A stretch of DNA of 32,000 bases from Acaryochloris marina S15. Its GTDB lineage: Bacteria > Cyanobacteriota > Cyanobacteriia > Thermosynechococcales > Thermosynechococcaceae. The notes under the pieces are model-generated. The model searched no databases. It was not told the DNA's origin and saw only the letters and a program-made list of their open reading frames with translations. The DNA is taken from assembly GCF_018336915.1 (NCBI RefSeq), contig NZ_CP064923.1, positions 3,840,001-3,872,000 on the forward strand, in the 5' to 3' direction. Every line of letters begins with the position of its first letter. The stretch's first letter is position 1. Of this stretch, positions 1-22,792 are shown piece by piece. Position numbers and translations under genes: made by a program.

Positions 1-567
1 TTTTATCCCCAGCCTCTTTAAGGCTTGATTCAACTCCACTGCGGTAGTCATTTTGCCGCAAGCACAATCTGTACCGAGGACAGCAATGACAGGTACATTC
101 ACTCTAGCTATTTGACCGCTAAAGATATGCAAATCCTTGAGCTGAGGTGGTTTTCTAATATCTTTAATCTGAATACCATGGTGATCAGCCATACGGGCAA
201 ACTCTGGATCTTCAGAGAAAAATTGGTGCAAACCGTTAATGATATCCATGCCCTTGGACATCGCTTCAAGAATTAAGAACCTTTCCACCCTTGAGACACA
301 GGCATCTAAAGGAGCTTTTCCATAGATGTAGCAATTTGGAACTTCTTGTAGCTGGTCTAAAGCCTCATCTAAGTTGGCAAAAATAGGGATGCCGTTTTTA
401 TGATCTCCTAACTCTTCCCCAGCATCTCTTCCCGCTAAAGTACTATCAATAACGCCAACGATGGTATACGCCTCAGAGTGCCGAACTAACCCTGAAGCAG
501 TTTTCCCGTCTACTAAACCAAACTGATTCTCGCAGTAAACTAAAGCCGTCTTTTTCGCAAATGGCAT
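1..567 (-). CDS. DUF1611-domain protein, N-terminal 189 codons (gene continues past the left window edge)
   Basis: My own translation of the minus strand from ATG (565-567) gives MPFAKKTALVYCENQFGLVDGKTASGLVRHSEAYTIVGVIDS...DIRKPP...VLGTDCACGKMTTAVELNQALKRLGIK, open to position 1. The GKTAxGLVR, DIRKPP and GTDCxxGKMTT blocks match my memory of the DUF1611 family. It is absent from the ORF track because it has no stop inside the window. Confidence 0.75.
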   Translation of the reverse strand, partial: MPFAKKTALVYCENQFGLVDGKTASGLVRHSEAYTIVGVIDSTLAGRDAGEELGDHKNGIPIFANLDEALDQLQEVPNCYIYGKAPLDACVSRVERFLILEAMSKGMDIINGLHQFFSEDPEFARMADHHGIQIKDIRKPPQLKDLHIFSGQIARVNVPVIAVLGTDCACGKMTTAVELNQALKRLGIK

Positions 568-593
568 GCAATTAAACCTTTACAATTTTCTCT

Positions 594-642
594 TAAATAC
601 TCAAGAGGCTTTTATAAGATTGCTAAGCCTCTTGAGTATTTA
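594..642. repeat. Perfect 18-bp inverted repeat (TAAATACTCAAGAGGCTT, 13-nt spacer), a strong hairpin that looks like a terminator on the + strand
   Basis: Arms 594-611 and 625-642 are exact reverse complements. On the + strand a T-rich tract follows (tttatttattttttc, about 644-658). It lies about 26 nt upstream of the DUF1611 ATG on the other strand. Confidence 0.9.
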
Positions 643-973
643 GAGTTTATTTATTTTTTCTCACAGGAAGAAACTATTCAGAAAGTACAGTTCCTGAAAT
701 CTAGTGTGATCGTGTTTTTTAAAGATCTACGCAGTTAAAACTGCAGAGCTTAGTAAATTCTTTGGTGAATATAAGTAATGTATATATCGAAGCGAGAAGC
801 TCAGGACCTAGCTGAGTTTTCTTTTAAACCTATACCTATAGAAACTGTAACATATATTACTTTTTAGAATTATTGAATCAAAGATCTTGGTATGCTTTAT
901 TGCCTGAATACAGACTCGCTGATTCCTTACTGCCTACCTTCACCAGCTCAAGGGTGACCGGCTTGATCCTCCG

Positions 974-1239
974 TTTAACGGATTCTGGGGGATCTCTATT
1001 AAGAGCATCTCCAATAGGATGGAGTTCTTATTTCGTAAGCTTTTAAGCCATATTCTTGAAATGATGTTGATCAACTTCTTAAACCCTGATGTCAATAATA
1101 TTAGGTTCAAATTGACCCACTCAGTTTTCAGATGGGAGAATTTATTAAATTCCTGCAAGTCATGTGAAATATGGGATTAAAAGCTTTCTCAGGAACACTT
1201 TCTAGGTTTGGATTTTTAAAGACCCCAGAATCCGTTAAA
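974..1239. repeat. 17-bp perfect inverted repeats bracketing a 232-bp AT-rich segment (MITE-like element or invertible segment)
   Basis: TTTAACGGATTCTGGGG at 974-990 and its exact reverse complement CCCCAGAATCCGTTAAA at 1223-1239. Both arms have TTAA within their outer ends (975-978 and 1235-1238). Confidence 0.85.
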
Positions 1240-1547
1240 ACAAGCAATAACCAGTGTTTAGATATAATTTTCTATAAAAGCACTTTTACCACAAGAGATT
1301 TTAGCCTTAGAAGAAAATTAAAAAGAGGCTGAAACACCCCATATATGCTGATGCATAATATACTCCCTTTGTATAGTGTGTAAGTCCCATGTCTAGGGAT
1401 ATTCAGCGATACGCTAGCATGATCAGTATGATGAAAGTATCGGTTTCACATTTGTTTTCAAGATTGCCAGGTTTATTCCAACTCAATTTTTAAGCCAATA
1501 TACCGATATCCAAATCTCTACACTTTACTAATTTTGGATATAAATTT

Positions 1548-1820
1548 ATGTCGATTTACGTTGGTAACCTCTCATATGACGTTACAGAGCAAGACCTCAA
1601 TACCGCTTTTGCAGAATATGGAACTGTAAAAAGTGCAAAGCTCCCCACTGACCGTGAAACAGGTAAGATTCGGGGATTTGGTTTTGTTGAGATGAGTGAT
1701 GAAGCTGAGGAAGCCAAAGCTATTGAAGAACTAGACGGTGCTGAATGGATGGGGCGTACCCTGAAAGTAAATCAAGCAAAACCTCGTGAAGATAGAGGTG
1801 GTGGTGGAAATCGCTGGTAG
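1548..1820 (+). CDS. RRM-type RNA-binding protein with a short Gly-rich tail (cyanobacterial Rbp class)
   Basis: RNP2 IYVGNL and RNP1 RGFGFVEM are present, with a C-terminal RGGGGNRW. Length of 90 aa is typical of cyanobacterial Rbp proteins. Confidence 0.95.
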   Translation: MSIYVGNLSYDVTEQDLNTAFAEYGTVKSAKLPTDRETGKIRGFGFVEMSDEAEEAKAIEELDGAEWMGRTLKVNQAKPREDRGGGGNRW

Positions 1821-2038
1821 AGGTAATTCTCACTAATGGAACCAGTTAGGAGGTGAGGTGTGATCATCTCAGCCTCCTTGATAGAATACTGCAGAATAAA
1901 GGCTACAAGATTTATGTATTTAGTAAATACATTTTGTCGGAAGTACTTATCTTTAGATGACTCCAAAGGTAGGTTGAAATCATCTCAGTCTACTACCCAT
2001 TTTTCTAGGTGCTCCCAAATCTTGAATTCTAAAATGGC

Positions 2039-2353
2039 TCACTTGTGAAAGTTATCAGCCTGAGAAAGACGATCAGTTCTGTGCTCACTACCTAATGATG
2101 AGACTCTATATTTTTTCTGAGGTCTCGCTTGATCAACCTTCAGATCTCGACCCATCCATTCCGCACCATCAAGGGCTTCAATAGCAGCTTTTTCTTCAGT
2201 ATCAGACTCCATATCAATAAAAGCAAAGCCGCGTATATGGCCTTTTTCATCAGTTGGAAGCTTAACTTTTTTTATTGTCCCATATGATGAAAATACTGTT
2301 TTTAGAGCAATCTCTGTAACGTCATCGGCAAGATTACTAATACGAATTGACAT
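2039..2353 (-). CDS. RRM-type RNA-binding protein, divergent paralogue without a Gly-rich tail
   Basis: RNP2 IRISNL and RNP1 RGFAFIDM are present, and DGAEWMGRxLKV is shared with the neighbouring Rbp. It has an ATG start and is 104 aa. Confidence 0.9.
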   Translation of the reverse strand: MSIRISNLADDVTEIALKTVFSSYGTIKKVKLPTDEKGHIRGFAFIDMESDTEEKAAIEALDGAEWMGRDLKVDQARPQKKYRVSSLGSEHRTDRLSQADNFHK

Positions 2354-2578
2354 ACATTTCCTTTAATCTTCATTGAGTATTGAAAGTGGAATTTTGAATT
2401 TAAATCTGTTTACTAAAAGCGGATTAGTATTTTTGGCATATAGCTTAATCAATACAACGCACCTAAATTAAACACCCTGTAACTTCTAATATTGAGATAT
2501 TAACTAATTGATAGGTAGTGATACTCTAACGCCTCCACTTACCCATATCAGGTTTTGGTAGAAGCTTCCTTCTATTCC

Positions 2579-2785
2579 TCAATCACTCTTCTCTGTTTGT
2601 TTAATGAGAACTTTCGTTTGCCCCACCTCGTCGATATTTATAACGATCTCATCTCCTGCCTTAACACGACTGGTCAGAATTTCCTCAGCAAGACAATCTT
2701 CCAAAAGATGTGTGATCGCTCGACGTAGCGGACGCGCTCCCATCTCAGAATCATAGCCTACATCTACTAGCCGCTCCTTAAACAA
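2579..2785 (-). pseudogene. clpC: 3'-terminal remnant of a clpC-type Clp/Hsp100 ATPase gene (last ~68 codons only)
   Basis: The product FKERLVDVGYDSEMGARPLRRAITHLLEDCLAEEILTSRVKAGDEIVINIDEVGQTKVL matches the C-terminal D2-small domain signature (GARPLRR, LEDxLAEEIL) of ~820-aa ClpC proteins. The frame is closed by TAG five codons upstream of the TTG used by the ORF track. No ClpC-like sequence is recognisable further upstream. Confidence 0.8.
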
Positions 2786-3286
2786 ATCGGTAGTGCGCTA
2801 GCGAAGTGTGGGATACACAGCTAAATCGTTCCAAGTCCAAGGATTCAAGGATAGCTCCGCTTTTTGAGCTGTGGGTACGGCTATGGGTCCAAATCCAGTT
2901 GAAATAGCTTATACCAATTAGCACCTAAGAGTGTAATTCTAATTATTTGCTAAGCCAACTCAGTATTGGGTTTCACGAGTTTGAGAGTTACACCTTCAGG
3001 CACAGCTTGGTATTAGGTAGCAATGCTTGCCCGCACGATTGACAACCCTTCCAACCTCAGGGACGAAACTCACTCAGGAGCCTCAACCCTAGGTCTCTGT
3101 AGGTATCAAAGGCTAGAAACCTAACCTACCGTCAGATTTCTAACACATGATTGAAAGCACCTGGAACTATTGTCCACTCTTCGTTAGTCCAAACTCAAGT
3201 ATTAGAGGCTGATACTTAAATCAGGGGGCTGAATACAGATAGATAAGGGGCGATGAAAAGCAATGTAGTTTCAGTAAATCTTTTAC

Positions 3287-4861
3287 CTATAGCCGCACGC
3301 GTTGCCAATTTTTTACTCCACCAAATCGATAGCGAGCAGGCCACTCCACATATTTCAGTAAATCCATCAGACTTGAGACATCTTCTGGCACAGCTATTCC
3401 TGATGTAATTCTTTGATAGGGACACTCTGGATTTTCATCATAGTTGGTGCCATTAAAGCCGTTCAAAAAATTCACATCCCGGTGATATAAATTGTTCTGG
3501 TCATTAGGAGGGGGACACTTTTTGCTCTTGAGCGCAAGAATAGCTTCCATCCATAACACTCCCTCAACATTCGTATTTCTCCCTCCTGGACAACCTGGGC
3601 CAGTAGTTAGCAATCTTAAGTCGTCAATCGGGAACCAGAGAAAGGCATTTTGAATACAGCTGCGGTCAAAGAGGTTAACTTGACTATTCCCTCTGGCCAA
3701 AATGCGTAAATCCCCTACTTGAGGGAGTTGATCATCCGTCCGAATATTGAGGATTTTGGCATTATCTCGCAGAGTAATCGCTAATTCTGGATCAGTACCC
3801 CCATAAATGACATCAATTTGGACAGGGCCTCCAGTGGTGTCAATGGTTAATACTTCATCGTTGTCTAAATCAATACTTTCGACATGATAGAGGGTTGGGG
3901 TCATACTACCGACCCCTTTTAAGGTCGTACTTGTTGTAATGCGGCCGAAGTTTGTTCCTTGAATGGTCGTCGGTAGCTTAGGAGGTAAGTTGCAAGCAAA
4001 AATTTTTCCTTCTACTGTATCGATCGGACTACCATCTGCATCAAAATCCTCCCCATCGGTAGACCAAATAGCATCCAAATAATCAGCACGACTGGCATCC
4101 TCTGGGGCAGCACTATTCGTGAGGGAAGAATTGGCTGAACCATCAGGATTGTAGTAGATATTCCCCTTACTCCCCAGAACCTCGCGCCCTCTTAGGGCCA
4201 GAGTCCCAGTCTTGACGGCACCATTCGTATTGCGGGAAGCGATAATACCTGGAAAATTGTCTAAATCCGGGGTCACATTAATCGTGATTATGATGCCTGT
4301 GGCCTGACCATTGGTGGTGGCTTCTACAAATAATGTGCCCTGTTGTTGTTTCGGATCATAGCGATAGGCCTTCAAGGAATAGGTGCCATTATCACCAATT
4401 GAACCGGAAAATTGGAAATTAGGTACCCCCCAGTTCATTTGCTGGTGGCAGGGTTCATTACTGGGGTTATAGCTGGTCCATTCATCAATGAGGGCAGTCT
4501 CTTCATCTCCACTATTAAAGCTTCCATCTGCACCTAAATAGGTTTTGCCCGTTTTGATATTGATCGTGTCGTAATTGCGGTTGAGCAAAATGGCGTTGTT
4601 GGGGTTCGTCAGTTGCGCCAAGGTTCTGGCCATTCCCCCTTCAGCTGTGGATAGACTTGCACCGGATTCTTTACGTTGCCAAGACGTGATGCGATCGCTT
4701 TGGGCAGTCATGAGCATTGTGAGTCCCAATACCACCATCACAAAGCCTAAACCCAAGGCCAGGGGTAATGCAAAGCCAGCCTGAACACCCCGACGATTTG
4801 CAGATTGTGTCTGCTGTAACCACCCACGAATAACAGCAGCGGCAAAGGGATTTATCGGCAT
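3287..4861 (-). CDS. Large PilX_N-like pseudopilin / type IV pilus minor-pilin-like protein (524 aa)
   Basis: The N-terminus RRGVQAGFALPLALGLGFVMVVLGLTMLMTAQSDR...STAEGGMA has the PilX N-terminal domain pattern (G then a hydrophobic helix then A..AE.G). The rest is a large Gly/Asn/Thr/Asp-rich domain, probably beta-rich. An AGAGGAA lies just 5' of the ATG. Confidence 0.65.
   Translation of the reverse strand: MPINPFAAAVIRGWLQQTQSANRRGVQAGFALPLALGLGFVMVVLGLTMLMTAQSDRITSWQRKESGASLSTAEGGMARTLAQLTNPNNAILLNRNYDTINIKTGKTYLGADGSFNSGDEETALIDEWTSYNPSNEPCHQQMNWGVPNFQFSGSIGDNGTYSLKAYRYDPKQQQGTLFVEATTNGQATGIIITINVTPDLDNFPGIIASRNTNGAVKTGTLALRGREVLGSKGNIYYNPDGSANSSLTNSAAPEDASRADYLDAIWSTDGEDFDADGSPIDTVEGKIFACNLPPKLPTTIQGTNFGRITTSTTLKGVGSMTPTLYHVESIDLDNDEVLTIDTTGGPVQIDVIYGGTDPELAITLRDNAKILNIRTDDQLPQVGDLRILARGNSQVNLFDRSCIQNAFLWFPIDDLRLLTTGPGCPGGRNTNVEGVLWMEAILALKSKKCPPPNDQNNLYHRDVNFLNGFNGTNYDENPECPYQRITSGIAVPEDVSSLMDLLKYVEWPARYRFGGVKNWQRVRL
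4691..4698. repeat. HIP1 octamer GCGATCGC
   Basis: Exact match read in the sequence. Confidence 0.95.
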
Positions 4862-5240
4862 CGAATCATTCCTCTTTGGAAAGGCAGAGAAAAGGCCTGG
4901 AACGCCCTAATATAAGGCAGTTTGATCATGTCAAAAACATGATGCCGATCACTGCAATATGCATCAAACCCAGCCATAGTAAACCTAGAGGAGGTTAGCA
5001 GTTCAACTAAACATTACCTAAAAGCCAGAGCAACCAAATGCTCGTATCCGTCACTTTAACTTATGGGGGGATGAAAATAGAGTGATTCTTAATTTCGTCT
5101 CAACATCAAGAAATTAAACCTATTTTGTAGGTAGTAAGTGGTTAGAGTTGAGTAATTTTAGGTGCATTCTGAATTTTTAGGTGTATTGAACTCATCTGTG
5201 CCAGACCGTAAATAGGCATCAGCCTCACCGCTAGATGGCC

Positions 5241-5255
5241 GTGCCAAATTGGCAC
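5241..5255. promoter_or_regulatory. Perfect 7-1-7 palindrome GTGCCAA-A-TTGGCAC upstream of the small secreted-protein ORF
   Basis: Read directly from the sequence. It ends 33 nt upstream of the ATG at 5289, and TTGACG follows at about 5264-5269. Confidence 0.4.
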
Positions 5256-5288
5256 AATCCCAATTGACGAAAATTTTTGGAGTGGAAT

Positions 5289-5690
5289 ATGTCGAGAAGC
5301 AAATCAATCTTATCTTTAGGAAGTTGCGCTTTCGTTGCCCTGAGCGCAATGTTACCCCTGGGTGCCCAGGCCCAAGCGGATCCCTCTCAGTTAGGAATTC
5401 CTGAAGAGACAACATTTGCTATCATTACGCGAATGAGTGATACTGTGGCCGCCCGTATCTCAGCCTCCTCCTGCAAAGATACTCGCAATCTGTTGAAAGA
5501 GATGCGTAAGAGCAAAGGCAGCAAAACCTCAGAGCTATCTTTAGAAGGTCAATTGCTAGCCTCGGCCCAAACCCAACCTAAGTTGCAGCAAGTTGTGGCC
5601 AATCGAGTGGGTACAGCCTTGGCCCTTAAACTCATGCAGTGCAACATGATGAATCCTGATACTTTGGGTGCTTTGTTTAACCAGAAATAG
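5289..5690 (+). CDS. Small secreted hypothetical protein (signal peptide)
   Basis: MSRSKSILSLGSCAFVALSAMLPLGAQAQA/DP is a classical n-h-c signal peptide with an AxA site. GGAG at 5279-5282 lies 6 nt before this ATG. The ORF-track start at 5277 is a TTG. No family was recognised. Confidence 0.5.
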   Translation: MSRSKSILSLGSCAFVALSAMLPLGAQAQADPSQLGIPEETTFAIITRMSDTVAARISASSCKDTRNLLKEMRKSKGSKTSELSLEGQLLASAQTQPKLQQVVANRVGTALALKLMQCNMMNPDTLGALFNQK

Positions 5691-7016
5691 TTAGACCACC
5701 ACTTTGTTCTCTAGGACATTTTGCTGAGCCTGATGAACTCGATTTCGACCTGAAGTCTTAGCTCCATAGAGTGCCTGATCTGCTTGTTTGATCAGGTGCT
5801 CTTTCGTTTGGGCATCAGCCGGGAAGGTTGCAACGCCTAAACTAGCCGTCATTTCTACCTGCTGCAAGGAGGGCAGAATTACGGTCTCCTCAGCAATGGC
5901 TAGACGGATGCGATCTGCGATCGCAACACTATCATCACTATTGGTCTTAGGAAGAATGACCGCAAACTCCTCGCCCCCGTATCGACAAACAATATCCCCT
6001 GGTCGCACTTCCCGCTGCAGGAGTTGAGCTACTTCACAAAGGGCCAAATCCCCGGCCTGATGGCCAAAGGTATCATTGAGCTGCTTGAAATGATCAATAT
6101 CCACCATGATCAGCGAAACTTGATCGGTATTGCGCTGGGATTTCTCCACTTCCACCCTCAACCAGCGATTGAATTCCCGCCGATTGTAAACCTCCGTTAG
6201 ACCATCCAACGTGGCTAAACGGTACAAGTCTTTTTGGCTTTGCTCCAGCTTGGTCGCCATCAGGTTAAAGGTTTCTGCCAAATGACTCAATTCATCGCCT
6301 GAGGCCAAAGCAATCCGATGGCTCAATTCTCCCTTACCTAATTTTTCAACCCCTTCCTCCAAAGTTTGCAGTGGAACTGTAATAGAGCGAGACAGTCCAT
6401 AGGCAAACACGATTGCTAGCGCCAACGCCAAACCACAAATCATAGCGATGAGCTGTCTAACTTCTTTGCGAACGGCTTTTGCTTGGTTGGTATTGGCATC
6501 ATTTTGAAACACAATTAACCGATAATTCAGTTGTTGGACATCTTGCAAAATCATTCTGAGCTGGTCTTGCAGCTCAACTCTGGTAGATTGTGTATTTCCT
6601 GATTCAGAAATAGAGGGATCTAGGAGTTGTTTACACAGCTGGGAAATTCGTTGCCATTTTCGCTGTATTTCTAGAACAGAATTAAATTGGTGTGGATCAT
6701 GGTGGGAGAATTCTAAGAGCCTTTCCAAACTATTTGTGATGGCCTGACTTTTTTCCTGATACTTATCCCAAGTCATGGGGCGAGATGGCCCTACCGGAGA
6801 TGCCACCACATTTAAATCTAGAAATAATCCCTCAACCTCGGCCAGGGGGAACAAGGCTTCCCGACCCAAATTATCGTGCTTATCAAAACTACCTAATGCC
6901 CCTTCAAAGGAAATGATTGCCCCTGTAGCCAGCATGAGTAAGGGCACAAGCATGGCCCCTAAGCCCAATCGTAGGCGTTGGTTTAGGGAGGTTTTAGGTG
7001 TGGACCAAAAGGGCAT
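5691..7016 (-). CDS. Membrane sensor diguanylate cyclase (periplasmic/TM sensor - HAMP - GGDEF)
   Basis: An N-terminal TM segment and a second TM are followed by a HAMP-like SHRIALASGDELSHLAETFNLM. The GGDEF domain has an intact GGEEF and an RxxD I-site (RPGD 5 residues upstream). Confidence 0.9.
   Translation of the reverse strand: MPFWSTPKTSLNQRLRLGLGAMLVPLLMLATGAIISFEGALGSFDKHDNLGREALFPLAEVEGLFLDLNVVASPVGPSRPMTWDKYQEKSQAITNSLERLLEFSHHDPHQFNSVLEIQRKWQRISQLCKQLLDPSISESGNTQSTRVELQDQLRMILQDVQQLNYRLIVFQNDANTNQAKAVRKEVRQLIAMICGLALALAIVFAYGLSRSITVPLQTLEEGVEKLGKGELSHRIALASGDELSHLAETFNLMATKLEQSQKDLYRLATLDGLTEVYNRREFNRWLRVEVEKSQRNTDQVSLIMVDIDHFKQLNDTFGHQAGDLALCEVAQLLQREVRPGDIVCRYGGEEFAVILPKTNSDDSVAIADRIRLAIAEETVILPSLQQVEMTASLGVATFPADAQTKEHLIKQADQALYGAKTSGRNRVHQAQQNVLENKVVV
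5917..5924. repeat. HIP1 octamer GCGATCGC
   Basis: Exact match read in the sequence. Confidence 0.95.
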
Positions 7017-9959: not shown

Positions 9960-10016
9960 GAATGATTATTTGCAAAGATGATCTTTAGCTGATGAAATCA
10001 ACCTCTAAATTAGATC

Positions 10017-16713: not shown

Positions 16714-17691
16714 CTAGTCGTAACACCAGGTATCAAAGGATCGGCTGGGCGGTGCCTGATTCGATCGCACCGGTCGATGAAAGATGGATTTAGTATTAGT
16801 TGGCTTCTTGCGGGTGGTGGCTAATGCTGAGGACTTTTGCGTTTTTCTAGAGGTTGAACTGGTTTGCAGCTCAGCTACTTGTTTTTGCAACCGATCATTC
16901 TCTTTTGCTAATCGCACTGCATCCTGGGTGGTTTGCTCCAGCTTCTCTTTAATCGCATCTGTTTGATGGGTCGATTTCTGCAACGCTGTCAGGGCCGTTT
17001 TCTGCTCAGCCAGCTGTGACTCCAATTGAGCCACCTTCTTCTGCAAAGAGGTTTCTTTGGTTTGAGCTGCCTTTAAATCTTTAGTTAGGGCACTGACTTT
17101 CACTTTTAAATCAGTGTTAATGGATTGAGCACTACTGGCTGCGGAGCTGCTTGCGGTTGAGGCAGGTTTTGCTGCTGCTTTCTGTGCCGTAGAGGCGGCA
17201 GGCTTAGCCTTCTTTGCTGCCGCCGTCTTTGTGGCTGTTGTTTTCCGACTAGAAGATCGGCTGGACGTTGCCTTTTTAGCAGTAGAAGATTTAGTCGTTG
17301 ATTTTTTAGCTGCGGGTGCAGCAGCTTTGGTTGTTGACGTTGACTTCTTAGCTGCTGGTGAAGCAGCTTTGGTTGTTGACGTTGACTTCTTAGCTGCTGG
17401 TGAAGCAGTCTTAGTAGTGGAAGCAGCCTTAGGGGTCGATTTCTTAGCTGCGGGTGCAGCCTTAGTAGCCCCGGCAGTCTTTTTTTCCGTAGTTTTTTTG
17501 GCAGTGGTCGATTTAGCCGTACTTTTCTGGGCTGTCGTTGTCTTTTTCGCTGCAGCTTTTTTCGCTGATGTGGCTTTCTTTTGGGTCGTTGACGCGGCTG
17601 GTTTTGCACCTGCGCCATCTTTTTGATCAGGGGTCGCAGTTTTAGTTGCTTCTTCCCGTAATAAATCTGACAAACTTTTCTTCGTAGCCAT
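16714..17691 (-). CDS. 325-aa disordered K/A/T/S-rich, Q-rich coiled-coil protein with a C-terminal Trp; candidate ParA partner (McdB-like)
   Basis: The ATG at 17689-17691 overlaps the parA-like TAA (17691-17693) as TAATG. Domain order: [15 protein letters not shown], then ~170 aa of AAKK/STTKAA low complexity, then a heptad-like Q/K/E/L segment (about 16864-17121), then a basic tail ending SFDTWCYD. Two other frames are also open because of the repeats. This frame was chosen for the coupling and the coiled coil. Confidence 0.75.
   Translation of the reverse strand: MATKKSLSDLLREEATKTATPDQKDGAGAKPAASTTQKKATSAKKAAAKKTTTAQKSTAKSTTAKKTTEKKTAGATKAAPAAKKSTPKAASTTKTASPAAKKSTSTTKAASPAAKKSTSTTKAAAPAAKKSTTKSSTAKKATSSRSSSRKTTATKTAAAKKAKPAASTAQKAAAKPASTASSSAASSAQSINTDLKVKVSALTKDLKAAQTKETSLQKKVAQLESQLAEQKTALTALQKSTHQTDAIKEKLEQTTQDAVRLAKENDRLQKQVAELQTSSTSRKTQKSSALATTRKKPTNTKSIFHRPVRSNQAPPSRSFDTWCYD
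17321..17404. repeat. Perfect 2 x 42-bp tandem repeat (encodes SPAAKKSTSTTKAA twice), flanked by degenerate copies
   Basis: 17321-17362 and 17363-17404 are identical (gcagctttggttgttgacgttgacttcttagctgctggtgaa). The unit at 17279-17320 is a diverged copy. Confidence 0.95.
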
Positions 17692-18401
17692 TAACTGTCC
17701 CAATCCCGCTTAATTTCATCAACAACGCGGCAATAATCTGCTTTTGCCTCTTTACTATATTTCCCTTTCCATTGTGTAATCGGCTGTCCTTCCAAAGCTG
17801 CCCGTTCATGCGCCTTATAACTACGTACAAAGGCATGAAAAGCCGGAATGCCTAACTCCATCAAAGTGTTTTGAGCATCCAATGCTTCTCGCAAGCTTCG
17901 AGGATCGACCCGAGTTAGTAATACCCGATGAGCCACTCCCGATGGTTTGACTAATGTCCGCACCGTTTCAATTAGAACGGCAATTTCCATTGGGGCAGGA
18001 GGCGTAGGGAGCACTAAATAGTCAACCACAGGAATGACCATTTTCAAAATCTCTGACTCTAGACCTGGTGGCGTATCTACGACGACCAGCTCTTGCTTAC
18101 TGGAACGGCGCAAATTTTTCAATTCTTTCGCGCTAGCCCCAGATTGGACTTGGAATTTAAGGGAATTTGTATCACGCTGGGTCCACCAAGTTGCGGACCC
18201 TTGCGGATCGGCGTCAATTAGGAGAACTTGATGAGCTTCTGCAAATACTGCTGTGAGATTAACAGCCGTGGTGGTTTTACCAACACCACCTTTGCCATTG
18301 AGGACGGCGACAACCTTGGTTTTTGAAGATTTAGAAGGCAACTTGGGCACCGCTAATGATTGCCAATAGTAAGCAGGAGGCTCTGACTTTGCAACTTGCA
18401 A
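17691..18401 (-). CDS. ParA/MinD-family deviant Walker-A ATPase (small, no HTH domain); McdA-like candidate
   Basis: Motifs present: [16 protein letters not shown] (KGGxxGKT with the signature Lys), [14 protein letters not shown] and VVVDTPPG. The start is uncertain: TTG at 18401 in the ORF track, with no ATG before the Walker A. Confidence 0.88.
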
Positions 18402-19657: not shown

Positions 19658-20338
19658 CTAGTTCACCCCATTTACCTGCTGGCTTAAATCATTAACACTT
19701 TGGGACATGATGGCTAAAGCTTGCTGAAGGCTTTCTACATCAGCCCCGGCGCCATTAGGTAGTGCGGGGATCGTAGAGGGTGAAACCGGTAAGGGAATCC
19801 CAATCCCTCCGGTAAAGATAGAATCAACCTCCATTAGACTAGCTCCCGTAGAAGTGGGAACTGCTGTGGAGAGCTGATCAAATTCAGTTTCGCCAGCGTT
19901 GGGCAGAAAAGTACCACGATGTTCAGGGGTAAAGAGGAGTTGGCGATTCAGCAACGCTGGAAAAGGGAATCGTTGCCGGACAAAAACTTCGACATAACCC
20001 CGAAACTCAACAGTGTCGACATTGGGGTCGAGGGTGAGAATATCAGGCTGCAAAATGATTAAGCCTGTGTCCTTGGCTCTGAGTCCAAAGTCATAACAAC
20101 TATCAGCATCCAGAGTGCCAAAATCGTTAGAACCACCGGTATCTCGAATTACAATTAGCTTACTGGTATCGAGAGCTGGGGTTGTTGCATTAAATTTCAA
20201 TCGCAATAACACATCAAAGTTATGGGGATTAGAAACTGTTAGAAAATATCCCTGCAAAATTTTCCGGTTGGAGTTAGATATATTTCCTTCTGCAGGTGTA
20301 ATATCTTTAAGGAGAAGTTCAAAGGTTGAAAGTAGCAT
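19658..20338 (-). CDS. Hypothetical protein (226 aa from ATG), no family recognised
   Basis: This is a long ORF with normal composition for the window. The ATG at 20336-20338 is preceded by AAGGAC, and the ORF-track start at 20368 is a TTG. The product starts MLLSTFELLLKDITPAEGN and has a helical Q-rich C-terminus. Confidence 0.6.
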   Translation of the reverse strand: MLLSTFELLLKDITPAEGNISNSNRKILQGYFLTVSNPHNFDVLLRLKFNATTPALDTSKLIVIRDTGGSNDFGTLDADSCYDFGLRAKDTGLIILQPDILTLDPNVDTVEFRGYVEVFVRQRFPFPALLNRQLLFTPEHRGTFLPNAGETEFDQLSTAVPTSTGASLMEVDSIFTGGIGIPLPVSPSTIPALPNGAGADVESLQQALAIMSQSVNDLSQQVNGVN

Positions 20339-21094
20339 AGAAATGTCCTTTGTGTGATGGTTGATCAATAAATTTCAGTGAGGATCATTGAATGTATTTA
20401 TGAGTAACGATTACTGAGATAAACAGAAGAAAAATGTTCTTTTCAAGTAAAGATCTCAAATTTATCTTCCATAGCCTTTTTAAGGCAAAATAACAAAGCA
20501 GATAGCTTGTTAGTGCCATTGAGAGTTCCTAGGATACTTGAGCATAAAAGTTAGAGGCTAAGCTCTAAACATATGCAGCTTCAATGCCTGACACCTAAAT
20601 TGACTTTTGAAATCTACTAGTGTAGTCATCTTGTTTAGATAGTAGAAGCTCAATGAATTCACCCTGAAAAGGCCATTAAAGAGAGAAGATTTTGATTTGT
20701 TTTAACCTGTCTTCAGTTCGTTAATCTGAAATCAATATAATCCAAAAAAACTTAGATAAAAGTGATTATCTTCAATATTTTGTGTGACATAAATCATTGA
20801 AAATTTCTTCTTTGTATAAAATATTTTTTATGCTTATAAATAATATTATATGCTTTTTCTGTAGTATTTTTGTTGCAGGAAAGATGCAATAAAAACAAGT
20901 CCAGTATGATTCTAATTGGGTCGCATCTATAGGCTAAGTAATATAGAAATATTTTTAAAATTCGTACCTTTAAAAACTACTGTGTAGAAATCAATGGCCA
21001 TCAATACAGGCGAGAATGATACGGAATTCAGCTCTAGGTAAAGGTTTCTATATGGTTTGATTTCGATTTAAATCTCCAATCTTCTGACTTGAAG

Positions 21095-21193: not shown

Positions 21194-22792
21194 ATGCAAA
21201 CCATTGCCGCTATTGATGTGGGAACCAATTCGATCCACATGGTTGTGGTGAAAGTTAACCCTGAAATTCCAGCATTCAATATTATTGATACTGAGAAAAG
21301 TACCGTTCGCCTAGGGGAAGGCAGCAAAGATACTGGGAAGCTGCATCCGGATGCGATCGCAAGAGCAATTGCCGCCTTGCGCAGATGTCAAGAAGTTGCC
21401 GCAGCCTGCAAAGTCGAACAGATCCAAGCGGTTGCCACCAGTGCTGTCCGGGAAGCCCTCAATGGTCGGACCTTTATTCGTGCCGTTGAGTCCGAACTCG
21501 GGCTTAAAATCAATGTCATATCCGGTCCAGAAGAAGCCCGGCGAATTTACCTCGGGGTCTTGTCCGGTATTGAATTTAATAACAAGCCCCACGTCATGAT
21601 TGATATTGGGGGTGGATCAACCGAGCTCATTTTAGGGAATGGTCAAGATCCGCGCTCCCTCAGCAGTACCAAGGTAGGAGCGGTACGGCTGACTGAGGAA
21701 TATATCACCACCGATCCGGTCAGTACTAGCGAATTTGAGCGGTTACAGGCCTATGTTCGAGGAATGTTGGAATGGCCGGTTGAAGAGTTGCGTTCCCATC
21801 TCTCTCCCGATGAAGTGCCAACCCTTATTGGCACCTCCGGAACAATTGAAAGCATTCTCAAACTGCATGCCTGCGAGGTTATGGGAGCTTGTCCCACCTC
21901 TCTTCATGGCCACGTCCTCACCCTTGATGACCTGAACGACCTCATCCACAAGCTGCGAAAGCTCAATTACGACGAACGCTGCAAAATGCCTGGGATGACG
22001 GAGCGGCGAGCAGAAATTATTTTAGCCGGAGCTGTAATTTTGGCTGAAACAATGACCCTGCTGCACTTAGATTCCATTACCACCTGTGAACGCGCTCTAC
22101 GAGAAGGCATCGTGGTGGACTGGATGATGAAGCAAGGATTGATTGAAGATCGACTCCGCTACCAGGGTTCCGTGCGAGAACGCAGCGTCATGAACTTGGC
22201 CCATCAGTACCATGTGGAGTTATCAACTGCTGAGCGAATCGCTGATTTTGCCGTCGCTTTATTTGATCAAACCCAAGGCTCTCTCCATCATTGGGGAATA
22301 GACGAGCGTCATTCCCTGTGGGCAGCCGCTATTTTGCATAACTGCGGGCATTACATCAGCCATTCCGCCCATCATAAACATTCCTACTACTTAATCCGTC
22401 ATGGCGGCTTGTTGGGCTATACCGATGCCGAAGTCGAGATTATTGCCAACTTAGCCCGGTATCACCGCAAAGGAGCTCCCAAAAAGAAGCATGAGAACTA
22501 TCAGAACTTGGTGAATAAAGCCCAACGTCAGATCGTCGACCAGCTCAGTGCCATTCTTAAGTTAGCGGTCGCCTTGGATCGGCGGCAGATAGGTGCGATT
22601 GAATCCCTACATTGTGAAATTGATTCAGATACCATTACCCTCCATCTCCAAGCGAGTCAAACCGACGATGACTGTGCTTTAGAGCTATGGAGTTTAGAGA
22701 TGAAAAAAGCTTGCTTTGAATCCGAATTTGATATGACTCTGGTCGCTCAACTGGCTGAATCTGCTCCCAGCCCTGATTTACAGCTAGCCTGA
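21194..22792 (+). CDS. ppx: Ppx/GppA-family exopolyphosphatase / guanosine pentaphosphate phosphohydrolase with a C-terminal HD domain
   Basis: ASKHA phosphate motifs AAIDVGTNSIHMVV and DIGGGSTEL are present, with a C-terminal HD-type region HNCGHYISHSAHHKHSYYLI. Confidence 0.92.
   Translation: MQTIAAIDVGTNSIHMVVVKVNPEIPAFNIIDTEKSTVRLGEGSKDTGKLHPDAIARAIAALRRCQEVAAACKVEQIQAVATSAVREALNGRTFIRAVESELGLKINVISGPEEARRIYLGVLSGIEFNNKPHVMIDIGGGSTELILGNGQDPRSLSSTKVGAVRLTEEYITTDPVSTSEFERLQAYVRGMLEWPVEELRSHLSPDEVPTLIGTSGTIESILKLHACEVMGACPTSLHGHVLTLDDLNDLIHKLRKLNYDERCKMPGMTERRAEIILAGAVILAETMTLLHLDSITTCERALREGIVVDWMMKQGLIEDRLRYQGSVRERSVMNLAHQYHVELSTAERIADFAVALFDQTQGSLHHWGIDERHSLWAAAILHNCGHYISHSAHHKHSYYLIRHGGLLGYTDAEVEIIANLARYHRKGAPKKKHENYQNLVNKAQRQIVDQLSAILKLAVALDRRQIGAIESLHCEIDSDTITLHLQASQTDDDCALELWSLEMKKACFESEFDMTLVAQLAESAPSPDLQLA
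21353..21360. repeat. HIP1 octamer GCGATCGC
   Basis: Exact match read in the sequence. Confidence 0.95.

Follow-up and report, generated by a model that had tools for sequence, protein, structure and literature searches.

The 32-kb window analysed here (the whole stretch of DNA, from Acaryochloris marina S15) carries on its minus strand an open reading frame (ORF) for a protein of 524 amino acids (aa), listed at the position where a preliminary description had placed it; its predicted parts and its neighbours are collected in Table 1. The ORF begins at the first start codon past the upstream stop codon, and a GAGG Shine-Dalgarno-like motif is located 9 nt 5' of its ATG. The product is 100% identical to a protein of Acaryochloris marina that is recorded as a "hypothetical protein." A first search identified 187 homologues at E ≤ 0.001, and the profile of the family matched 457 representative clusters at the same threshold; none of the best 150 of these 457 representative relatives is longer than 602 aa. 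The dN/dS ratios of the ORF in comparison with its orthologues range from 0.07 to 0.19, the highest value being that obtained against the other solitary copy among the orthologues used (L007). On account of these homologues, clusters and ratios the ORF is to be regarded as real: it is intact, it is under purifying selection and it is no chance ORF.

Table 1. Features of the 524-aa protein gene and of its surroundings in the window.
Feature	Coordinates	Strand	Evidence or remark
PilX-family minor pilin gene (very probable assignment), whole coding sequence, 524 aa + stop	3287..4861	-	ORF list, 100% database identity, dN/dS
Predicted class-III (prepilin-type) leader, residues 1-29, ending with invariant Gly-1	4775..4861	-	comparison of 85 homologues
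Predicted mature N-terminus and alpha1, residues 30-84	4610..4774	-	F(+1) A L P L(+5), hydrophobic alpha1N, no Glu5
Predicted pilin-core antiparallel sheet, four strands, residues 152-198	4268..4408	-	AlphaFold model
Predicted inserted beta-solenoid head, DUF7305-type, about residues 200-443	3533..4264	-	model, Foldseek and DUF7305
Variable, low-confidence surface loop, residues 444-487	3401..3532	-	pLDDT 66-80
Predicted C-terminal helix and last beta-strand, residues 488-524	3290..3400	-	AlphaFold model, conserved residues
Downstream non-coding region, 501 bp, with synteny breakpoints	2786..3286	.	locus comparison
clpC remnant, truncated	2579-2785		ClpB_D2-small model positions 35-81, 52.7 bits
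Upstream intergenic region, 415 bp, common with the divergent 137-aa gene	4862..5276	.	holds the GAGG motif 4871-4874
Secreted-protein gene upstream, 137 aa, divergent	5277-5690		conserved syntenic neighbour within Acaryochloris
Membrane HAMP-GGDEF diguanylate cyclase gene	5691..7016	-	Pfam HAMP and GGDEF domains

The surroundings of the gene are in large part as they had been described, viz. non-coding flanks of 400–500 bp, neither of which contains a pilin-like ORF of at least 25 aa, and beyond the downstream flank a remnant of clpC, which is recognised by the ClpB_D2-small model. The upstream region is collinear with that of L003 at 83%. Scans for promoters and terminators gave matches no more frequent than chance, in the upstream region as elsewhere, and no CRP-like (cAMP-CRP) site was found in 4862–5276, the counts in the whole window being at chance level; the minor-pilin genes of Synechocystis served as the model for this site search. 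On the downstream side, homology to L003 and L009 ends at position 3288, exactly at the stop codon of the gene, L007 has only positions 3014–3286 in common with the downstream region, and a Logan contig of the same strain stops at 2986. No tRNA, Rfam match (in positions 1–6000), meaningful repeat or mobile element was found at the breakpoint. The window contains no other pilin gene and no gene of the pilus machinery, and tblastn searches of it in which the L003 and L004 partner proteins served as queries recovered only the PilX gene itself. The gene sits at a break of synteny, and its downstream partner genes are gone. The earlier statement that it stands alone is correct for pilin genes and for these only, because the secreted-protein gene and the HAMP-GGDEF gene upstream of it are conserved neighbours, the former of which had been considered unrelated.

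The N-terminus of the protein consists of MPINPFAAAVIRGWLQQTQSANRRGVQAG and, past the predicted cleavage site, FALPLALGLGFVMVVLGLTMLMT. The predicted PilD site is formed by QAG followed by FALPLALGLGFVMVVLGLTMLM, with Gly at –1, Phe at +1 and then a hydrophobic stretch. In a comparison of 85 homologues, Gly-1 (Gly29 of the protein studied here) is present in 85/85 and Phe+1 in 79/85. Position +5, where the lack of Glu had been noted correctly, is Leu in this protein and L, I, M or V in 84/85, with Glu in 0/85. The leader counts 29 residues and not 28, and its length, which had been called unusual, is the norm of the family (median 25 residues, range 8–59). It is modelled with a pLDDT below 55; the strongest hydrophobic window of the protein comprises residues 29–52, and in the AlphaFold model residues 31–84 form one helix of 54 residues, alpha1 of pilins having a length of about 53 residues. 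The description of this N-terminus as non-canonical cannot be upheld, since the absence of Glu5 is the norm for the tip pilins PilX and GspK and extends to Synechocystis PilX1-3 and PilA12 (bioRxiv 10.1101/2020.12.15.422378).

The searches with domain profiles have to be read for the family as well as for the single protein. The prepilin profiles N_methyl (PF07963) and TIGR02532, the latter of which had been proposed as a check, find no match in the 524-aa protein even at E ≤ 10; the partner genes of its homologues do give matches. The PilX_N profile (PF14341, gathering cut-off 25.5 bits), proposed along with it, likewise has no match at E ≤ 10 in the whole sequence or in the N-terminus alone. 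It matches 10/85 homologues at E ≤ 1, the N-terminus of P0109 scores 15.4 bits, and the aligned N-terminal segment of P0117 scores 26.9 bits over model positions 1–51, which is above the cut-off. The PilX_N search is thus negative for the protein itself and positive for a homologue, and the view that a missing PilX_N match would speak against a pilin is too strict, because P0117 passes the cut-off. An N-terminus that is negative in Pfam and a solitary position of the gene are no argument against a pilin. The sole Pfam or NCBIfam match of the 524-aa protein is to DUF7305 (PF23981), with 17.1 bits at residues 320–351, below the cut-off of 27 bits. DUF7305 matches 46/85 members of the family at E ≤ 1, scores 27–31 bits on P0088, P0109, and P0116 and 47–54 bits on distant relatives, and spans the solenoid region in homologues; a literature search on DUF7305 found no paper. 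In NCBIfam, the protein and three of its homologues have no significant family match and none to Hps, in a library that may lack an HpsA model.

The part of the protein that follows alpha1 had been described as rich in Gly, Asn, Asp, and Thr and probably beta-rich, and both its composition (G 9.6%, T 8.9%, N 8.9%, and D 7.8% in residues 75–524) and the predicted structure agree with this. The AlphaFold (AF2) model has a pLDDT of 87.9 and a pTM of 0.82. All four strands of its pilin-core sheet (residues 152–155, 159–169, 174–183, and 186–198) have a pLDDT above 90, and short strands, which make up a solenoid of about 300 aa, run from residue 206 to residue 443. The loop that comes after them contains a 10-aa insertion in the alignment of orthologues and two extra cysteines, C449 and C480, each found in 1/85 sequences at its position and absent from all of the 84 other aligned homologues. 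The C-terminal part comprises a helix (496–504) and a strand (511–522), and P508, Y511, and W519 are invariant in the alignment of homologues. As the elements are ordered in the model, the solenoid is placed between the penultimate and the last pilin strands, and on the basis of this order strand 511–522 would pair with the pilin sheet and close it.

Comparison of the model with the PDB by means of Foldseek gave ComZ as the best match. No chains but 6qvi_A and 6qvi_B of this protein reach E ≤ 0.001 in either search, and these two have probabilities of 0.87–0.94 and full-length alignments; 6qvi_C is next (1.2e-3 and 1.9e-3), and ice-binding solenoid proteins rank after ComZ (TMt 0.40–0.45). When superposed globally on ComZ, the model fits poorly (TM 0.19–0.24, rmsd 14–15 Å). 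A second model from which alpha1N was omitted has a pLDDT of 90.7, an unchanged Foldseek ranking and an equally low TM against ComZ. A search of the PDB sequences with the family profile found no chain at E ≤ 10. The C-terminal domain, for which structure prediction had been recommended and which had been left without a family, is on the evidence of the model, the Foldseek matches and the DUF7305 matches of its relatives a predicted triangular beta-solenoid of the DUF7305 type, as in ComZ and in ice-binding proteins.

The family to which the gene belongs is normally operonic. Of about 30 related loci, at least 20 have the PilX homologue followed by one to three prepilin genes on the same strand, with canonical GF[ST]LxE N-termini and lengths of about 190, 230, and 360–400 aa, and the stop and start codons of these genes often overlap or abut. 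These partner genes are PilV-, FimT-, and PilW-like and lie directly 3' of the homologue in most other genomes. Their proteins give weak matches to XpsH, GspJ, and GspG, and the PilW-like partner in L002 gives a weak N-terminal match to HpsC (24 bits); type II secretion (T2SS, gsp) genes occur neither in the window nor beside the homologues in the loci examined. Within Acaryochloris, clusters that contain further PilX paralogues and/or FimT- and PilW-like genes begin with the orthologue in L003, in L004 (which shares its contig with L008), in L009, and in L012, and a second, shorter PilX type of 449–462 aa adjoins the 524-aa type in such clusters. Solitary PilX genes are known from Synechocystis, whose PilX1-3 are encoded in this way and have a hydrophobic residue at +5 (bioRxiv 10.1101/2020.12.15.422378).

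Several paralogues of the 524-aa gene are present in the genome studied here. One of them, P0020, is found with an adjoining FimT-like gene elsewhere on the same 5.88-Mb chromosome, and this pair is a candidate source of partner pilins. For A. marina, as many as 44 pilin genes, distributed over several sets, have been reported (bioRxiv 10.64898/2026.02.12.705559). The named records of the family at 45% identity or more belong mainly to the Acaryochloridaceae and Thermosynechococcaceae, and also to Altericista, Stenomitos, and Cyanosarcina. The cluster names of 10 distant representatives include only Geminocystis, the Geminocystis-type protein as query found six matches, none of them from a model organism, and the 120 matches listed for a homologue from the Thermosynechococcaceae include no protein of BP-1 or Synechocystis.

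The class-III signal peptide, which is a feature of the whole family, the model of a pilin with an inserted solenoid and its match to ComZ, and the minor-pilin operons beside the homologues together make it very probable that the 524-aa protein is a PilX-class (GspK-like) minor pilin of a cyanobacterial type IV pilus, in agreement with the PilX-like nature first suggested for it. By analogy with related proteins, it is probably an adhesin or receptor of the pilus tip. As in PilX, GspK, and ComZ, PilD would cleave the prepilin after Gly29, and the mature protein would be the first subunit of a FimT-PilW-PilV-PilX priming complex and would end up at the tip of the filament. A PilX at the tip would need no Glu5, because there is no subunit above it. 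The bulky solenoid would fit only at the tip, where it may cap the fibre and offer a surface for the binding of DNA or of a surface or polysaccharide. A rearrangement in Acaryochloris marina S15 has parted the gene from its partner genes, and the protein would therefore have to work with PilV/PilW/FimT-type pilins that are encoded elsewhere.

Proteins of the same kind have been described in other cyanobacteria, and the comparison with them is made by published description. The PilX proteins of Synechocystis (Slr0226, Slr0442, and Sll1268, i.e., PilX1-3) and RntA of S. elongatus have the same Gly-Phe cleavage motif and a hydrophobic residue at +5, and the 524-aa copy differs from them in its own Cys-containing loop insertion. 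Cyanobacterial PilX combines a pilin fold with a triangular beta-solenoid like that of ComZ (bioRxiv 10.64898/2026.02.12.705559); the solenoid interrupts the pilin fold, as it does in the model of the 524-aa protein. It is far larger than the major pilin, and its gene adjoins those of PilV-type pilins in many genomes and is solitary in Synechocystis. The ComZ protein of Thermus thermophilus (6QVI) has the same architecture, viz. a pilin domain with a large solenoid inserted before the last strand, an order that is also that of our model (PMC6561018). As a tip pilin, ComZ binds DNA, and the argument has been made that no other place in the pilus could accommodate it (PMC6561018). Its likeness to the 524-aa protein is architectural only: no sequence similarity is detectable, the identity in the structural alignment is 10–12%, and the solenoid of ComZ has about 380 residues vs. 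about 300. The conserved DNA-binding lysines of ComZ are K98 and K233, and, as a further difference, its gene lies in a competence locus.

Similarities also extend to minor pilins of other bacteria. In Pseudomonas PilX and in GspK, the tip-most core minor pilin lacks Glu5, as does the 524-aa protein, and the partners of these proteins are of the FimT/GspH, PilV/GspI, and PilW/GspJ types that are found beside its homologues. The PilX of proteobacteria has fewer than about 200 aa and is not known to carry a solenoid. The proteobacterial PilY1/PilC, proposed as a bulky tip "plug" and adhesin on the minor-pilin complex, is a functional analogue only; PilY1 is not a pilin, there is no homology to the 524-aa protein, and the head of PilY1 is a beta-propeller and not a solenoid. 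HpsA and PilA12 (Slr2018), of the PilX-EPS type, share the PilX-type N-terminus, the beta-solenoid and a gene position first in a set of pseudopilin genes; they are much larger, from 773 aa upwards, and their solenoids are expanded and accompanied by additional domains, whereas the 524-aa protein has one solenoid and nothing added to it. In view of its length and its one solenoid, it appears, on balance, closer to the "Com" subfamily than to the HpsA-like "EPS" subfamily.

The converse assignment, in which the protein would be a PilX of the EPS/HpsA-like subfamily and, as tip adhesin on the long motility pilus, would recognise secreted polysaccharide, and would not belong to a Com tip, is possible though doubtful. 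The gene order PilX, PilV-, FimT-, PilW-like suits hps-type and Com loci equally, the PilW-like partner in L002 has its weak HpsC match, the shorter PilX type of the Acaryochloris clusters could itself be the Com type, and Com and EPS are not a strict functional split (bioRxiv 10.64898/2026.02.12.705559). However, the plain architecture and length of the protein are unlike those of PilA12, the 602-aa limit holds for all of the best 150 representative relatives, and no significant NCBIfam or Hps match was obtained for the protein and three homologues, although HpsA may be missing from that library. A further assignment, as a GspK-analogue tip pseudopilin of a T2SS-like pseudopilus that exports proteins or polysaccharide, is the least probable of those considered here. 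Partners that resemble GspH, GspI, and GspJ, with their weak XpsH, GspJ, and GspG matches, the lack of Glu5 as in GspK, and a ComZ pilin domain that is closest to GspK (PMC6561018) would all suit it; the loci examined, however, are without T2SS genes, GspK carries a helical domain between strands 3 and 4 where the 524-aa protein has a solenoid before its last strand (PMC6561018), and cyanobacterial gene sets of this kind prime type IV pili (bioRxiv 10.64898/2026.02.12.705559).

Two other readings would deny the gene a role in pili. If the hydrophobic segment were an ordinary uncleaved signal anchor, the protein would be no pilin and instead a membrane-anchored or periplasmic beta-solenoid surface protein. 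Such a reading, which can draw on the missing prepilin and PilX_N matches of the protein itself, its lack of Glu5 and the absence of pilus genes from the window, is most unlikely in the face of an invariant Gly-Phe-Ala-Leu motif, located exactly where the hydrophobic helix begins in 85 homologues whose leaders vary freely, a helix length that fits a pilin alpha1, a tight linkage to canonical prepilin genes with coding regions that often abut or overlap, and the pilin ComZ as the source of the only PDB chains at E ≤ 0.001. It is also very unlikely that the gene is a stranded paralogue, left by a rearrangement, disused and decaying: its frame is intact, the ratios of 0.07–0.19 include the 0.19 obtained against the solitary copy in L007, the 415-bp upstream region and the Shine-Dalgarno-like motif have been kept, and the solitary PilX genes of Synechocystis are functional (bioRxiv 10.1101/2020.12.15.422378; 10.64898/2026.02.12.705559), even though synteny with the sister strains ends at the stop codon with the partners gone, the truncated clpC remnant lies 500 bp downstream, the genome holds several paralogues and no convincing promoter was found.

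For a PilX-class minor pilin, the literature already describes the architecture of a pilin with a solenoid, the lack of Glu5, solitary paralogues and, in A. marina, multiple pilin sets, and the present finding is real but ordinary and opens no new question. What is gained is the annotation as a PilX-type tip minor pilin, very probable as stated above, for a family that is publicly called "hypothetical protein." That neither a Pfam-negative N-terminus nor a solitary gene counts against a pilin is of use, too, when the very large set of Acaryochloris pilins is annotated.

A single item may deserve follow-up, viz. the conserved association with a gene for a membrane diguanylate cyclase. Orthologues of the HAMP-GGDEF gene lie directly upstream of PilX homologues in Acaryochloris (L003, L004, L009, and L012) and likewise in L022, L025, L028, L034, and L036, and the neighbourhood is conserved across several genera; this linkage suggests a functional tie between the cyclase and PilX. 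In Pseudomonas aeruginosa, SadC, a diguanylate cyclase of the membrane, receives signals from PilY1 (PMC4324313, PMC5979040). By analogy with this route from PilY1 and the minor pilins to SadC, the solitary and tandem PilX proteins of Acaryochloris might be interchangeable tip modules on common PilV/PilW/FimT pilins, joined to a circuit that leads from the tip through HAMP-GGDEF to c-di-GMP, a combination that we consider speculative and rather improbable. If it held, each PilX paralogue would have its own solenoid surface, to which the private Cys-bearing loop of the 524-aa copy would belong, and the identity of the displayed tip, or contact made by it, would be coupled to c-di-GMP levels. 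In L013, a HAMP-GGDEF paralogue with 63% identity heads a run of PilV-, FimT-, and PilW-like genes on the same strand.

The 524 aa protein is a further member of an already described kind of protein, the PilX-type minor pilins, and the finding is a real one. The preliminary description had proposed a PilX_N-like pilin, and this main guess was right, as is seen from the pilin-plus-solenoid model, the top structural match to ComZ and the minor-pilin operons of its homologues. The ORF is present as described; it begins at the first possible start codon past the upstream stop, carries a GAGG motif 9 nt 5' of its ATG, and its product shares 100% identity with an Acaryochloris marina protein that is recorded as "hypothetical protein" and encoded on a 5.88-Mb contig. 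A first homology search with the protein identified 187 proteins (E <= 0.001), all of whose named sources are cyanobacteria and every one of which is labelled hypothetical. A full HMMER profile search against 1.84 billion representatives identified 457 clusters (E <= 0.001), of which 130 reached E <= 1e-10, with nearly all of the full-length clusters comprising 400-600 aa. The dN/dS values of the gene versus its orthologues are 0.07-0.19, and at the sequence level it belongs to a real, constrained gene family.

The leader (MPINPFAAAVIRGWLQQTQSANRRGVQAG) comprises 29 residues, not the 28 previously counted, and is directly followed by FALPLALGLGFVMVVLGLTMLMT, where hydrophobicity is highest along the chain; the position +5 is Leu, so that the earlier report of a long leader without Glu at +5 stands. 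The remainder is rich in Gly (9.6%), Thr (8.9%), Asn (8.9%) and Asp (7.8%), also in agreement with that report. Across an alignment of 85 sequences, leader sequence and leader length (8-59 residues, median 25) vary freely, while the Gly preceding the hydrophobic helix and cysteines 138, 290, 402 and 424 are invariant, and Phe+1, Ala+2 and Leu+3 each show a conservation of at least 93%. Position +5 is occupied by L, I, M or V in 84 of the 85 sequences and by Glu in none. In the loop 444-487, the query copy is extended by an insertion of 10 aa (KKCPPPNDQN region) and has two additional cysteines (C449 and C480), and the insertion with both cysteines is found in 0 of the 84 other aligned homologues. 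This loop lies at the end of the solenoid, and no other part of the model is as variable or as low in confidence; it could plausibly determine specificity.

Profile scans of the query itself detected no match to PilX_N, N_methyl or TIGR02532, and the PilX_N and TIGR02532 check put forward in the preliminary description was thus negative for this protein. In Pfam, the one noteworthy match of the query was to DUF7305 (17 bits, below the 27-bit cut-off). DUF7305 is matched by 46 of 85 homologues at E <= 1, within the solenoid region, with scores of 27-31 bits in three tested homologues and 47-54 bits in more distant relatives, and PilX_N is matched by 10 of the 85 at E <= 1. The N-terminus of one full-length homologue, P0117 (46% identical, E 5e-125), matches the whole PilX_N model from its Q-G-F motif onward (26.9 bits, cut-off 25.5). 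Through these matches to DUF7305 and PilX_N, the homologous sequences bridge the gap left by the query's own profile scan.

An AlphaFold2 model built with the 85-sequence alignment is confident (pLDDT 87.9, pTM 0.82), and confidence is just as high for a second model from which alpha1N was left out (pLDDT 90.7, pTM 0.89). The predicted strands bear out the beta-rich C-terminal domain that had been thought probable. When both models were compared by Foldseek with 350,542 PDB chains, the top matches for each were chains of ComZ from Thermus thermophilus (6QVI), in full-length alignments (E 1e-4 to 2e-3, probability 0.80-0.94); two ComZ chains were the sole matches at E <= 0.001, and ice-binding proteins ranked after them (TMt 0.40-0.45). 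ComZ is the closest PDB match, but rigid-body superposition with it is poor (TM 0.19-0.24, rmsd 14-15 A), and no sequence similarity of the query family to any PDB chain was found.

ComZ consists of a type IV pilin fold, like that of GspK, with a triangular beta-solenoid, like those of ice-binding proteins, between its penultimate and last strands, and on steric grounds it has been argued to fit only the pilus tip, binding DNA there (PMC6561018). Oeser et al. (bioRxiv 10.1101/2020.12.15.422378) described the Synechocystis proteins PilX1-3 (Slr0226, Slr0442 and Sll1268) and PilA12 (Slr2018, 773 aa) as minor pilins of a PilX-like type in which position +5 is hydrophobic. A classification of the pilins of 90 cyanobacterial genomes reports that a ComZ-like triangular beta-solenoid interrupts the pilin fold in all cyanobacterial PilX homologues, that these form two subfamilies (viz. 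Com and an HpsA-like EPS type), that the solenoid may be a tip plug in place of PilY1, and that the pilin genes of A. marina number up to 44, spread over several sets (Schuergers et al., bioRxiv 10.64898/2026.02.12.705559). All of our findings on the query fit this published PilX description, and hence the features earlier deemed odd are the norm for the class. Because of its size (524 aa), its single solenoid and the lack of a significant NCBIfam (Hps) match, we tentatively favour the Com type over the HpsA-like EPS type. PilD would cleave the protein after Gly29, and it would nucleate a priming complex with PilV-, PilW- and FimT-type pilins from other loci and come to sit at the filament tip, where its solenoid would cap the fibre and serve as a receptor surface; a Com-type, ComZ-like protein would have DNA as its target, and an EPS-type one a surface or polysaccharide.

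Among 37 related loci surveyed, canonical prepilin genes (GF[ST]LxE) follow the homologue in most of those with enough flank; in one locus (L002) these match N_methyl, TIGR02532, GspJ or XpsH. The reading frames of PilX and the PilV-like gene often overlap or abut, and the complete Altericista sp. CCNU0014 genome has the gene order HAMP-GGDEF, PilX, PilV-like, FimT-like, PilW-like. The presence of PilV-, FimT- and PilW-like genes behind the homologues indicates that the family belongs to the core of FimT-PilW-PilV-PilX-type minor-pilin sets. Acaryochloris clusters (L004, L012, L014 and L015) also contain another PilX type, which is shorter (449-462 aa) and shares ~28% identity with the query. 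Its own PilV-, FimT- and PilW-like genes lie directly behind the first set, giving two complete tip sets per locus; this type has a weak DUF7305 match in L004, the sole one of these loci with a precomputed Pfam record. The PilW/GspJ-like partner in L002 (355 aa) matches the VHL beta domain in its C-terminal part (PF01847; 23 bits, cut-off 21).

Features of the query protein, the window and related loci
Feature	Location	Strand	Remarks
Query gene	window 3287-4861	-	524 aa
Helix	residues 31-84		54 residues; first element of the model
Four strands	residues 152-198		AlphaFold2 model
Long series of short strands	residues 206-443		AlphaFold2 model
Lower-confidence loop	residues 444-487 (window 3401-3532)	-	AlphaFold2 model
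Short helix, then last strand	after the loop; strand 511-522		AlphaFold2 model
PilV-like gene	3' of PilX homologue	same	~190 aa
FimT/GspH-like gene	3' of PilX homologue	same	~230 aa
PilW/GspJ-like gene	3' of PilX homologue	same	~360-400 aa
RRM gene	window 1548-1820	+	RNA-binding protein
RRM gene	window 2039-2353	-	RNA-binding protein
Region with clpC remnant	window 2579-3286		
137 aa protein gene	window 5277-5690	+	divergent from query gene
HAMP-GGDEF gene	window 5691-7016	-	upstream of query gene
329 aa ORF	window 16714-18401	-	Lys/Ala/Thr-rich, low complexity
236 aa ORF	window 19658-20368		unannotated
Shorter PilX type	L004 15959-19268		
PilW/GspJ-like partner	L002 12848-13915		355 aa

The query gene itself is alone, as had been observed: no further pilin gene is present within the 32-kb window, and its flanks of 415 and 501 bp, earlier given as 400-500 bp and non-coding, contain no credible ORF. 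Between positions 10000 and 3288, the window is collinear with a contig of a sister strain (L003, 83% identity), and the upstream gene order is also found at the orthologue in A. marina MBIC11017 (L009); homology to both ends exactly at the query stop codon. Downstream of the orthologue, L003, L004, L009 and L012 carry more PilX paralogues and/or FimT- and PilW-like genes, and the window has, behind the query gene, 500 bp of non-coding sequence, a clpC remnant and two RRM genes. The remnant, already recognised in the preliminary description, is a truncated C-terminus of 68 aa located 500 bp 3' of the query gene, matching ClpB_D2-small (model positions 35-81, 52.7 bits). A 92% identical copy on a metagenome contig (L007) is solitary too, shares no more than 270 bp downstream and diverges from the window at about 3014, a break occurs at 2986 in a short-read assembly of the window's own strain, and the G+C content is 0.37-0.40 in positions 1-3000 versus 0.44-0.52 over most of the remaining window. 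The region with the clpC remnant is a rearrangement scar; searches there for tRNAs, Rfam matches and repeats were negative. The two RRM genes are convergent and form a 131-nt inverted repeat (70% complementary).

Elsewhere on the same chromosome (L001), a FimT-like prepilin gene and, in tandem, two PilX paralogues are located directly behind an ABC-transporter operon, at ~6 kb from kaiABC on its downstream side, and this region is collinear (78%) with the part of L003 3' of the orthologue. This set may be the displaced partner cluster of the query, an assignment that is uncertain because its PilX genes are paralogues.

Acaryochloris, Altericista, Stenomitos and several MAGs of Acaryochloridaceae and Thermosynechococcaceae have full-length orthologues of the HAMP-GGDEF gene (41-86% identity; loci including L022, L025, L028, L034 and L036), each on the strand of a PilX homologue and directly 5' of it, and in A. 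marina MBIC11017 (L013) a 63% identical paralogue heads a same-strand run of PilV-, FimT- and PilW-like genes. Through the HAMP-GGDEF gene, the minor-pilin complex may have a dedicated connection to c-di-GMP. The conserved pairing of this gene recalls Pseudomonas, in which PilY1 and minor pilins signal to the diguanylate cyclase SadC (PMC4324313), and fits Synechocystis, in which pilX1 and pilA5-6 are under c-di-GMP control (PMC12288463). This pairing of a membrane HAMP-GGDEF protein with PilX and minor-pilin operons across several genera is the only lead that goes beyond the literature.

The 137 aa protein has a signal-peptide-like N-terminus and no Pfam match, and its gene keeps this position, at 82-94% identity, in every Acaryochloris locus covering the region. 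The 329 aa ORF has a coiled-coil-like C-terminus and overlaps the end of a ParA-like ATPase gene, in a region of strong AT skew (-0.20 to -0.31). The 236 aa ORF has no Pfam match; around its 5' end the G+C content falls to 0.33 (window 20001-21000), and this low-G+C stretch reaches toward the gene starting at 21194.
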